Below are positions 27,169 to 30,992 of a DNA stretch of 64,000 bases, one piece after another. The notes beneath the pieces were generated by a model. The model did not search any database and was not told the DNA's origin. It was given only the letters and a program-made list of their open reading frames with translations. The DNA is from Eledone cirrhosa (lineage: Eukaryota). A program made the translations under genes and the position numbers. The stretch covers positions 55,676,001 through 55,740,000 of the forward strand of contig OZ024746.1 of assembly GCA_964016885.1 (NCBI GenBank), in the 5' to 3' direction. How positions within the stretch are numbered: position 1 is the stretch's first letter; every line of letters begins with the position of its first letter.

Positions 27169-27297
27169 ATATATATATATATATATATATATATATATAT
27201 ATATATATATATATATATATATATAAATCAAGGTCAAGCAAATAGAGACAAAGTTTTAAAATAAATTTCAAAAAATGTTACTGTACTTACTATATGT

Positions 27298-27379
27298 GCC
27301 TTTACCGCGGTTTCTGATCCCAAAATAAACAGATAATCCTAGCGGATTTACATTGATAAAGATATCGTCGTCAGAAAGC
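27298..27379 (-). ncRNA. Type I hammerhead ribozyme motif (family A)
   Basis: gcttt-CTGACGA-cgatatc..gggatca-GAAA-ccgcgg-TA-aaggc. Confidence 0.78.
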
Positions 27380-28001
27380 TTTTCTCACTCGTAGAATATA
27401 AAATTCTCGAGTTCAAATCACAAACTGGCGCCACACACAATTGTTCCCGAATGAGAGTGAATGAGAGATGAAACTAATGTTGTCTGTTACCGGGTGCAAA
27501 AGCAAAGGCTGGGTGGATAGGTCAATGTACTGCTACTAAAAATAGCAGCCGTTCAAATGACCAAAGATGTATCTAGTGTAGGGGAGAATAGTAATAAAAG
27601 TATATATTCCTATGTGTAAATAATACACACTTGGATATTTAAAAACTTTTTCTGAATTTGCTTGATCTTGTTTTTCTATGTTCTGGCATGTTAATTTATT
27701 AACTTGCCATCGACCCACACTGGCATGCGGTTGGAAAATATTTGTATCCCTGTGTGTATTATGTACATATAGGAATACATACTTTTATTACTATTCTCCC
27801 CTACGGTAGAGACATATTTGGTCATTTGAACGGCTGCTATTTTTAGTAGCAGAATATTGACATGTTCACCTAGCCTTTGCTTTTGCACACGGTACCAGAC
27901 AAAACTGTTTCATCTCTCATTCACTCTCATTCGGGAACAATTGAGTGTGGCGCCAGTTTGTGGTTTGAACTCGGGAATTTTATATTTTCCGAGTGAGAAA
28001 A

Positions 28002-28083
28002 GCCTACTGACGACGATCTCTTTCTCAATGGAAATCCGCTTGGATTGTCTGTTTATTTGGGGATCAGAAACCGCGGTAAAGGC
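28002..28083 (+). ncRNA. Type I hammerhead ribozyme motif (family A)
   Basis: gccta-CTGACGA-cgatctc..gggatca-GAAA-ccgcgg-TA-aaggc; GUA triplet, palindromic stem III. Confidence 0.8.
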
Positions 28084-29789
28084 ACACATAGTAAGTACAG
28101 TAACATTTTTTGAAATTTATTTAAAAACTTTTTCTCTATATGCTTGACCTTGATTTCATATTTTCTGGCATGTTAATTTATTAACTGCCATCGAACCACA
28201 CTAACATACGGTTGGTAAATACTTGTATCCCTGTGTGTATTATTTACACATAGGAATATATACTTTTATTTTATGTATATATATATATATATATAATATG
28301 GTGGAATAGAACAATAAAGATTGAACTTTGATCTGATCAACAGAGAAACGTGCGGCACTACTGATTGAACGTAACGACAACATAACATATCGTCCTTTTT
28401 TTATATACTTTGCTTTGTTCTATACTTCTATACATACTGGAACCTAAGCACCGAGTTCTCACTCTGGTGAACTTACAGTAACTGGACGTTACATTCCCTA
28501 TATATATATATGCATATGTGTGTATGTAGAAAGAGTTAAAGAGGCATGTATATGAAGGTGTGTACGATAGGATAGGATATGGATAATTAAAAAAAATATA
28601 TTTTTATATTTCCCCGATAAGTTTTCACTCCATTGCAGCCGATGTGGTTATATTCAATGTCTGCCCACTATCGTACTTTTCACTAAATTTTTTAGGGTTT
28701 TCCTTGCTTTTTTCGGCTGTTGGCCATCTAGCTAGTCATAACATTTCGTATCGTTCTTATGCATGTTAAAACCCACTCCCCCGCACATTTGCTCTCGCCA
28801 TAAAAAGTAAAACAAGGATGATCCCAATAATTTCTATGTTTAAAAAAAAATGGAGGTTTGAACCTGTAAAAAAATTATGATTCGCGCACATATAGCTTCA
28901 TATAATTTCAATCTAATGACAAAAATCAGTAAGTGAATATATGAATAATAAACAGAAAAAATGCATTTCAGAAGAAAGAAACAATTAAGAGGTTATTGAT
29001 AAGGTCAGTCATTCTAATTGCTAAACGTTTAACGTCAATGACTAAATCCATTTATCAAATGTATCTCTATAGAATACGAATCTATAGATATGATATCACA
29101 CTATTAAACATCATTCATAGCCTGATGATAACTCTAGAAATATTTGAGAAAATAAAAATAACCACAAAAGCCAACAGACTTAACGTAACATTACATGGAA
29201 CGAACTATTGTTCATTCCTGAACAAAAAGCGACAAGGAATCGATATTGTACTGATCGGTCTTGGAATTTCGACAAATGATATATATGAATTATATTGATA
29301 TACATACGTACACAGGCAGACACACACACACGTATATATATATATATATATATATATATATATATATATATATATATATATATATATATATATATATATA
29401 TATATATATATATATATATATATATATATATATATATATTTATACATTAAAATATATATATTTATGTGTATATGTGTGTGTGTGTGTGTGCGTGCTTCTC
29501 TGTGCCTGTGTCTTTATGCGAGGGTGTGGGTGTTTGGGTCTGCGTATATATGTTCTTCGAAAATCTAGTACAATTTCCTAAGCTATTATTCATAACAATC
29601 GTCAGTTTTCACAGTTATTTTCTACGTTTACTAAGAATGGCACGGTACTCAACGCACCGATGAATTGTCTAATATATATATATATATGTATATATATATA
29701 TATATATATGTATATATATATATATATATATGTATATATATATATATATGTATATATATATATATATATATAGTGTGTGTGCGTAATGT

Positions 29790-30450
29790 ATTTAGGTTTA
29801 ATCGGTACATATCGATTATTTTTCTCAATAAATGACCAAGGGCACACCAATTCCGAGTCGCATTTATGCAGGTTTGAAGGATATATAACTTCTTTTTTGA
29901 TATATCATTTATTCTTATATATATGTGTATACATGATATATATATATATATATATAAGTGGTTACACAATAGTTACTACACCATACCGAGAACAATTGTT
30001 TCACCTTAGCGGATACTCAGCTCGTAATTACGAACTGAGGATCCGCTAAAATTGTTCTCGGTATGGTGAAGTAACTGTTGTGTAACGACATCTACCTAAC
30101 TTGTCCTATGGATATTACCTTCCATTTTTTCTACCACTATATATATATATATATATATATATATATATATATATATATATATATATATATATATATATAT
30201 ATATATATATATATATATATATATATATATATATATATATATACATATATATATATATATATATAAATATATATATATATATATATATATATATATAATG
30301 TATACACATATATATATATATAGGTTTAAATGATTTATAAAAAAGAGGTTATATATCCTTCAAACCTGGATAATTGCGAATCGGAATTGGTGTCCCCCGT
30401 ACTCATTTATTGAGAAAACTAATCGATATGTACCGATTAAACCTAAATAA
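29790..30450. repeat. Diverged inverted pair (29790-29910 and 30327-30450) enclosing a hairpin at 29961-30086
   Basis: atttaggtttaatcggtacatatcgatta versus taatcgatatgtaccgattaaacctaaat. Confidence 0.85.
29987..30024 (-). ncRNA. Degenerate minimal hammerhead motif (family D)
   Basis: cgag-CTGAGTA-tccgctaaggt-GAAA-caattg-TT-ctcg; the opposite hairpin arm keeps CTGAGGA but has lost ggtgaaac. Confidence 0.55.
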
Positions 30451-30488
30451 ATAAATAAATATATATATATATATATATAGTAATCATT

Positions 30489-30548
30489 AGTTTCAGAAGA
30501 TCCCGTTAAGGGTGAAAGCAGCGATTCTTTGCTTAAACTTTAATCTGT
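30489..30548 (+). ncRNA. Variant-core hammerhead-like motif (family E)
   Basis: agttt-CAGAAGA-tcccgttaagggt-GAAA-gca..tgc-TT-aaact. Confidence 0.55.
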
Positions 30549-30582
30549 TATTTTAATAAATATATATATACATATATATATA

Positions 30583-30992
30583 TAATAGAATATGTGTTCC
30601 TACACGCACAATGCGCTAAGGGACACATGTATTTCCAACCACATGCCAATGTGGTTCAATGGCAGGTTAATAAATTAACGAGCCAGAACATATATAAACA
30701 AGGTTTAGCAAATAAGGAAAAAGTTTCAAAATAAATTTTAAAAAATTAACATTACCTACTATAGTTACCTTTACCGAATCGGTTTCGAATCTCAAAAATA
30801 AACGGAGTCCATACGGCCTTCGTTGCAAAGAAAGATTCTCGTCAGAAGGTTCTTTACATTCGAAGAATATAAAATTCTCGAACTTAAATTACAAACTGGC
30901 GCTATTCAAAATTGTTCCCGAGATGAGAGTAAATGAAGTGGAATCAATTTTTTCAAGAGCCGAGTGCAAAGATAGAAGCAGAGGCATGAACA
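30583..30992 (-). mobile_element. Diverged family A element copy
   Basis: Collinear with 27865-28270 in reverse (ttaataaattaac, aatataaaattctcga, acaaactggcgc, aattgttcccga); ends at the same point before (TA)n. Confidence 0.85.
30767..30850 (-). ncRNA. Canonical type I hammerhead ribozyme (family A, divergent copy)
   Basis: acctt-CTGACGA-gaatct..agattc-GAAA-ccgattcgg-TA-aaggt; all three stems pair, GUA triplet. Confidence 0.9.

Follow-up and report, generated by a model that had tools for sequence, protein, structure and literature searches.

A hammerhead ribozyme under selection, with a likely pseudoknot brace, in a tandem repeat of Eledone cirrhosa

The window analysed here is a stretch of 64,000 nucleotides (nt) of Eledone cirrhosa (contig OZ024746.1, positions 55,676,001 to 55,740,000), and it carries three full-size copies of one hammerhead ribozyme. 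Judged by sequence, these hammerheads are part of a non-coding tandem repeat of about 480 nt, an animal retrozyme without long terminal repeats (a non-LTR retrozyme) and with Penelope-type ends. The repeat sits in TA microsatellites. In the reading preferred here, its hammerhead is under purifying selection and predicted to cut in multimers, a pseudoknot likely braces it, and the repeat is likely copied in the manner of Penelope elements. The probability of this reading is put at roughly 0.7.

The hammerheads and their repeat

A motif scan finds type I hammerheads at 27303-27374 (minus strand), 28007-28078 (plus) and 30772-30845 (minus). These are called the 27.3, 28.0 and 30.8 kilobase (kb) copies. 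CTGACGA, GAAA and GUA are intact in each, so that all three have the type I core C3 U4 G5 A6 N7 G8 A9 / G12 A13 A14 A15 / U16 H17. A covariance model made from 115 copies of the family returns the three at E<1e-23 and everything else in the window at E>=0.39; the 28.0 and 30.8 kb copies belonged to its training set. The Rfam hammerhead models give nothing at the gathering score in the window, and none of them is among the 22 weak Rfam matches (up to E=5) in 27200-31400. This miss is likely due to the long insert in stem II. The parts of the three copies are as follows.

27298..27388, minus: hammerhead of the 27.3 kb copy, type I, with a 6-nt palindromic stem III and a predicted cut after 27303
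27380-27388, 27368-27374 and 27354-27360, minus: its putative pseudoknot 5' strand, core, and putative pseudoknot 3' strand
27993..28083, plus: hammerhead of the 28.0 kb copy, type I, predicted cut after 28078
27993-28001, 28002-28006/28079-28083 and 28007-28013, plus: its putative pseudoknot 5' strand, stem I and core
28014-28020/28060-28066 and 28071-28076, plus: its stem II and stem III
28021-28027, 28028-28053 and 28054-28059, plus: its loop II, made up of putative pseudoknot 3' strand, inner hairpin and U-rich linker
30767..30859, minus: hammerhead of the 30.8 kb copy, intact type I, predicted cut between 30772 and 30771
30851-30859, 30846-30850/30767-30771 and 30839-30845, minus: its putative pseudoknot 5' strand, stem I and core
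30832-30838/30787-30793, minus: its stem II, with G-C at 10.1-11.1
30824-30831, 30801-30823 and 30794-30800, minus: its loop II, again putative pseudoknot 3' strand, inner hairpin and U-rich linker
30774-30782, minus: its stem III, a palindrome with one central U.U

An original prediction, made from the letters of this DNA, had described stems and core in these copies. The motifs lie where it put them, and the cut that it predicted in the 30.8 kb copy is correctly placed. Its register for stem II, on the other hand, conceals a C.A at 10.1-11.1 in the 27.3 and 28.0 kb copies. It also took the 30.8 kb copy to be the diverged one. This copy is in fact young, at 0% from the majority of its own subfamily over 177 alignment columns, compared to 3.5% and 4.7% for the other two. 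Besides its C.A, the 27.3 kb copy bears private lesions that break stem II and the putative pseudoknot strand. In the 28.0 kb copy, a private U>A change disrupts the stem I pair adjacent to the core.

Repeat units are 479-485 nt long and lie head to tail, in arrays that reach 9 units differing by 0-1 base. In four units, the longest open reading frame (ORF) has 44-52 codons. The octamer promoter motif was found in none of four units, and circular folds of four units, each compared with 25 shuffles, give the ribozyme strand z-scores of -3.8 to -5.2. As is typical for retrozymes, the repeat is dispersed at high copy number and has a GC content below 50%. The host genome measures 3.0 gigabases and is rich in TA microsatellites. 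A pattern of stem III and stem I has 3,345 exact matches in this genome versus 11 for its reversed control, many more than chance would give, and 3,345 is a lower bound, since the pattern fits only 14 of the 67 rows obtained with 5' patterns. Genome searches with the hammerhead regions of the 28.0 and 30.8 kb copies gave 1,743 and 1,512 first-look candidates. The best matches are 88-94% identical for the former and 96-100% for the latter, and the 30.8 kb copy is therefore assigned to a younger subfamily.

Two arrays, L115:1227-5200 and L116, have 9 and 4 units. They are on one contig, 22 megabases apart, and agree in their diagnostic bases. Together with the 0-1 base by which the nine units differ, this suggests a common source of very recent date, and copying of more than a unit in one event.

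Selection, stem III and the loop II helix

The family was studied in 229 loci, in which 14 and later 21 subfamilies were resolved. Dropping near-identical neighbours and gappy rows reduced 194 matches to 165, and 154 of these were placed in subfamilies. Alignment A1 holds 115 copies, at most 10 per subfamily; pairing was counted on 112 distinct copies. The final alignment keeps 201 of 208 copies, one truncated copy having been excluded beforehand, and the tree of the 201 is unrooted. A branch is called deep when it leads to at least 4 copies, and deep branches are compared with private ones.

The 12 core positions have no deep-branch changes and 33 private ones (p=0.024 versus the flanks). Part of the sample was obtained with patterns in which half of the core is given, and this biases the result towards intact cores. 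The pairs of stem III similarly have no deep changes and 42 private ones (p=0.0098). Over the structure, pairing is kept after 47 of 65 deep changes versus 98 of 271 private changes (p=1.5e-7). Stem II changes on deep branches at four times the rate of the flanks, with its pairing retained. The earlier claim of selection on ribozyme structure is supported by the lack of deep changes in core and stem III, and by how deep and private changes differ in pairing.

Among the 112 distinct copies, the proposed structure is paired at 90.4%, versus 84.3% when shuffled and 33-56% when slid. Cells with a double change number 290 versus 95 shuffled, counts that ignore relatedness. The double changes are found in six of the seven stem II pairs and in one stem I pair; stem III is invariant. 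A home-made covariation test with a tree null was also run on 14,706 pairs. In its given-structure mode, 5 of 30 pairs reach E<0.05, namely two in stem II, one in stem I and two in the pseudoknot described below. These rank 1, 3, 4, 9 and 11 of all 14,706. Covariation is strong in stem II, weak in stem I and nil in stem III; compensatory changes had been claimed for all three stems, and stem III has none.

In hammerheads the 10.1-11.1 pair is usually G-C. The C.A there is a fixed subfamily trait of the 27.3 and 28.0 kb copies, and the pair is non-canonical in the older clade. In S04-S07, S15-S17, S19 and S20 it is fixed as U.U, G.U, U.G, C.A, A.G or A-U, with ten deep changes.

Stem III starts with CCG and ends with CGG in 21 of 21 subfamily majorities. 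Only the central insert varies: it is empty, CG, TA, AT or A-N-T. The stem is self-complementary in every subfamily, apart from at most one central position. Every form would pair with a second copy of itself at -13.6 to -19.9 kcal/mol (about -14 for the 9-nt form), while as a hairpin the energies are +1.9 (6 nt), -0.9 (8 nt) and -2.0 kcal/mol (9 nt). On one short branch, with 8 differences, the centre goes from CG to TA and the palindrome is retained. According to published work, invertebrate forms with two pairs cleave as monomers, and amphibian forms with one pair need dimers.

A shift from a dimer-type to a monomer-type stem III had been suggested. This direction finds no support: the 9-nt form still pairs with itself, two distinct clades have the 6-nt form, both next to relatives with 8 nt, the young subfamily S14 once more has a perfect 8-nt palindrome, and the tree has no root. 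What fits best is that selection has acted on self-complementarity throughout, while the ability to work as a monomer drifted in both directions.

Loop II had been described as differing substantially between copies. It turns out to have three parts: a pyrimidine strand, a hairpin and a U-rich linker. The inner hairpin has a tip of CC, a tetraloop and GG, and folds at -3.8 to -9.2 kcal/mol. Covariation within this hairpin is not significant; it is supported by its conservation, by its folding energy and by a single series of U-A, U.G and C-G.

The pyrimidine strand has its complement in the 7-8 purine-rich nt that directly precede stem I. This putative pseudoknot has 6-8 base pairs (bp) in 10 of 14 subfamilies, with duplex energies of -6.7 to -8.4 kcal/mol. 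At two of its pairs G-C and A-U replace one another, and both switches fall on short branches, one with 8 differences in 177 columns and one with 13. Between S15b and S16, where 8 of the 177 columns differ, two columns make up one pseudoknot pair (G-C to A-U) and another two the centre of the palindrome. S03 and S18 differ in 13 columns, two of which form the other pseudoknot pair. A G.U intermediate is seen in copy L201. An A.G mismatch present in some subfamilies is repaired to U.G in S12, the 30.8 kb type. The spacing from the pseudoknot strands to stems I and II is fixed in all 21 subfamily majorities.

From this the helix between the upstream strand and the loop II strand very probably exists, and it probably acts as an activating brace. 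The constructs 30767-30850 and 28002-28083 of the original prediction exclude the pseudoknot 5' strand. A second pseudoknot, with a strand 3' of stem I, was considered and rejected, as it is not conserved in the subfamily table, inspected by eye.

It is doubtful that all this amounts to an undescribed architecture, in which the pseudoknot would lock stems I and II, the U-rich linker would form a major-groove triple helix, the hairpin would be a coaxial cap, and an obligatorily self-complementary stem III would couple cutting to multimer synthesis. The linker does run parallel to the purine strand, as a triplex needs, and it gains U in most subfamilies where the purine strand gains A, with S16 as the exception. 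The changes in the linker fit no single triplex register (S04 versus S16).

Insertions and the Penelope-like neighbour

A single inverted insertion holds the 27.3 and 28.0 kb copies, one on each arm, and the 30.8 kb copy is a separate insertion. It lies against an older Penelope-like element.

27225..27637, minus: inverted arm of the two-armed insertion, a copy from older subfamily S07 of the roughly 482-nt repeat; it stops at end 1 (defined below), its 3' end, and abuts (TA)n at 27168-27225
27636..28274, plus: forward arm, 1.3 tandem units (27636-27789 recurs at 28118-28270); its 3' end is end 2, followed by TA repeats
28161..28274, plus: tail of about 110 nt between the alternative 3' ends, predicted to form two hairpins with single-stranded AU-rich linkers at both ends
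30582..30986, minus: 5'-truncated single copy of 405 nt, young subfamily S12; end 2 abuts TA repeats, and the 5' side meets the last base of the older Penelope-like element
30986..33320, minus: decayed Penelope-like element with reverse transcriptase (RT), Cys-rich linker and C-terminal GIY-YIG-like region; several stops and frameshifts, natural 3' end complete
31184..31218, minus: this element's own minimal hammerhead, a U3-A8 core variant with a 4-bp stem II and a 4-nt palindromic stem III, about 200 nt before the 3' end

Among 195 arms, the 3' end lies about 80 nt after the cut in 118 (end 1), about 190 nt after it in 64 (end 2), and elsewhere in 13. A common end at about 190 nt had been predicted; the 28.0 and 30.8 kb copies do end there, whereas the 27.3 kb copy stops at about 80 nt. 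TA-rich sequence follows 173 of the 182 termini of either kind. The 46 inverted insertions combine end 1 with end 2 in 37 cases, have the same end twice in 2, and an unclassified end in 7. This means that 37 of the 39 classifiable ones have one end per arm (p=1.4e-9). None of the 5' ends is at the cleavage site: the starts of 102 single arms are scattered across the unit, and 65 of these arms have (TA)n directly upstream. A direct repeat of about 50 nt (26500-26560 and 27120-27165) lies upstream of the TA tract that the two-armed insertion entered.

A tail at one end, an inverted 5' copy, 5' truncation and a microsatellite target are what marks elements mobilised by Penelope, and the repeat has all four. 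The pattern of its ends agrees with the tail that Penelope insertions carry at one end (PMC8557442). It also agrees with the work of PMC11167929, where this tail is bounded in vitro by two internal RT start sites and both strands are extended.

In the neighbouring Penelope-like element, the RT was found by Pfam, and the linker and GIY-YIG region were read by eye. The label Neptune/Nematis-type follows from the domain description in PMC8557442 alone and not from a tree. The U3-A8 hammerhead variant is described in PMC4209133. All 15 ends examined among this element's relatives stop at the same base, into TA-rich sequence, and 4 have a further tail of about 45 nt. This tail, in some of the copies in L103-L114, ends like end 2 of the repeat.

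The neighbour was tried as the parent of the repeat and rejected: the unit aligns to its 3' region no better than shuffles do (scores of 22-26 versus shuffled maxima of 30-36). A single template switch joining it to the 30.8 kb copy was likewise rejected on age, as the two are at 6.5% and 0% from their majorities. The 30.8 kb copy landed later, at the element's 3' end. In six of eight other copies of the Penelope-like family the distance from the majority is 2.0-2.5%, which makes them roughly as old as the young subfamilies of the repeat. Because these ages match, the family is a plausible candidate for the mobiliser of the repeat.

Mechanism, alternatives and meaning

The following mechanism is proposed. 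Read-through transcription of tandem units would give an RNA with at least two ribozymes. In each, stems I and II would be held side by side by a helix of 7-8 bp, in which the purine strand 5' of stem I pairs with the pyrimidine strand 3' of stem II. The remainder of loop II would form the hairpin and U-rich linker. Stem III would form between neighbouring ribozymes, a pairing that the 6-nt form needs and the 8-9 nt forms can do without, and this would favour the cutting of multimers. The unit RNA would probably be circularised. A Penelope-type RT and endonuclease would nick (TA)n, and complementary DNA would start at two internal AU-rich sites some 110 nt apart, one for each DNA end. Such two-site priming would lead to more-than-unit, 5'-truncated and inverted insertions.

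Several points count against this. The covariation test was not R-scape, and in its all-pairs mode 0 of 14,706 pairs reach E<0.05, the best being 0.07-0.12. Pairs with a double change are not above shuffles in the 112 copies (13 versus 11.5). The pseudoknot was picked after the subfamilies had been seen. It has a loose end pair, and the A.G mismatch is unrepaired in 4 of 14 subfamilies, including the young S13 and S14, with a duplex of about -2.4 kcal/mol. Its pairing is kept in 6 of 12 deep changes versus 12 of 51 private ones (p=0.085). A slide of -2 has a covariation score of 0.264, compared to 0.249 for the proposed register, in a comparison where the aligner had also mis-registered one pair. 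RNAfold nests the same two strands and traps the core. Double CpG decay could explain the change from CG to TA in stem III. A comparison that covered the neighbouring element's family turned up no autonomous parent. Of nine Xenopus retrozyme dimers tested, only one cleaved according to bioRxiv 10.64898/2026.07.22.740005, and in PMC11167929 insertion of the anole Penelope element in vitro did not require cleavage.

The trapped core suggests another role for the two strands. They could be an off-switch, forming an early nested hairpin so that cutting needs refolding, a partner ribozyme or Penelope protein. The minimum-energy folds of the 30.8 kb copy and of three of four whole units do contain this nested helix, the youngest subfamilies tolerate a weakened helix, and the anole Penelope hammerhead is reported to cut solely with protein present (PMC11167929). 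This explanation is nevertheless unlikely. The folding program cannot represent pseudoknots, the spacing to both stems is constant over the 21 majorities, and the strands sit at the tips of stems I and II, where PMC3088659 places activating contacts.

It is also quite unlikely that the complementarity is a by-product of purine and pyrimidine runs and shared ancestry, in a hammerhead that is selected but has no special tertiary contact. The absence of significant pairs in all-pairs mode, the slid register that scores equally, the mismatch left in four subfamilies and the mere two compensatory events would all fit this. Both events are however on the short branches of 8 and 13 differences, a joint chance of about once in 700 by a rough estimate, and the wobble intermediate and the repair to U.G are both observed.

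Finally, the unit could be the terminal repeat of an autonomous Penelope-like element, spread as truncated copies with the ribozyme as a passenger. End structure and target do match the neighbouring element, whose relatives show a second end (4 of 15), and the 30.8 kb copy is joined to its last base; yet this is very improbable, given that arrays are purely head-to-tail units, that (TA)n is directly upstream of so many single arms, that the differing distances from the majority indicate separate insertions, and that by tblastn coordinates no RT match abuts any other arm among the 229 loci.

The braced, Penelope-copied retrozyme preferred here resembles known systems in many ways. Like the animal non-LTR retrozymes of Cervera and de la Pena (2020, PMC7229834) and of Li, Clavereau and Pollet (2026, bioRxiv 10.64898/2026.07.22.740005), it is a non-coding tandem repeat with a low GC content (36-40%), one type I hammerhead per unit, thousands of copies, a short palindromic stem III, and coexistence with Penelope-like elements. 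Retrozymes are cut and circularised (PMC7229834). A mismatch at the base of stem II likewise occurs in some retrozyme families, as in axolotl HHR_Amex2. The unit of about 480 nt is longer than the 170-400 nt of PMC7229834 but within the 51-972 bp of the bioRxiv work. Different from animal retrozymes are the 7-bp stem II with its structured insert of about 45 nt, and a Watson-Crick pseudoknot that appears to replace the canonical contacts between loops I and II.

With Penelope elements (PMC4209133, PMC8557442, PMC11167929) the repeat shares 5' truncation, partial tandems, an inverted 5' copy, microsatellite targets, the one-ended tail, two internal start sites and a palindromic stem III. Unlike these elements it has no ORF, its tail is about 110 nt instead of 30-40, and its hammerhead is full-size rather than minimal. 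One start site per arm is nearly strict in the genomic copies here, whereas the in vitro study in PMC11167929 saw no strand difference.

Pseudoknots in hammerheads are not new. Perreault et al. (2011, PMC3088659) report that they brace types I, II and III, in about 40% of the motifs examined, and the pairing of stem I and stem II extensions as a tertiary contact would be common to their hammerheads and this one. Their tested examples are a metagenomic type II and the human C10 ribozyme. In the repeat the flank 5' of stem I would be the partner strand, and the ribozyme, an animal one of the repeat type, also carries a hairpin, a U-rich linker and a stem III that could form dimers. The PK hammerhead of PDB 8YDC (Zhan et al. 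2024, PMC11300833) is similar in that it combines a hammerhead core with a pseudoknot and with a third strand that follows a helix. Its pseudoknot takes the place of helix II; in the repeat a 7-bp covarying helix II is present and the pseudoknot would be additional. The third strand of 8YDC is A-rich and in the minor groove, while any third strand in the repeat would be U-rich.

The word pseudoknot is absent from the main text of three retrozyme and Penelope hammerhead papers (PMC7229834 and bioRxiv 10.64898/2026.07.22.740005 among them), whose figures or supplements may show such motifs. A review uses it once, for type III motifs. Literature searches returned neither a pseudoknotted retrozyme hammerhead nor a description of this repeat family.

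The window and the collected loci contain other repeats as well. Another type I hammerhead family, whose stem I has 8 bp and whose stem III is a short palindrome, is at 20085-20132 (minus), 20323-20372 (plus), 20785-20834 (minus) and 23306-23357 (plus). Its 20.1 and 20.3 kb copies are a back-to-back inverted pair beside TA repeats; the copy at 23.3 kb is related to them but diverged. A third repeat, inserted in TA sequence and likewise very common (L075:1423-1587, L124:276-431, L057:1229-1380 and about 20 other loci) has a minimal U3-A8 hammerhead, a stem I 3' strand as in the 480-nt family, two alternative 3' ends about 60 nt apart, and inverted arms. Positions 59755-60321 (plus) hold a fragment of a Pif1-type helicase (Pfam PF21530, E=8e-12), probably a Helitron remnant. 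Tandem copies (185-204 nt) of an abundant short interspersed repeat, also present in many collected loci, are found at 1872-2361 and 13777-14166.

The hammerhead family is real, selected and of a known class. The likely pseudoknot is the sole feature that makes it a variant, and not merely a new member. Its roughly 20 successive subfamilies are a natural mutation series for one ribozyme. The series shows what is held fixed, which is the core, the ends of stem III and self-complementarity, and what is free as long as it pairs, which is stem II. The near-strict rule of one start site per arm connects the two sites at which a Penelope enzyme starts in vitro with the two ends of a single DNA break, and bears on how both Penelope elements and retrozymes integrate.

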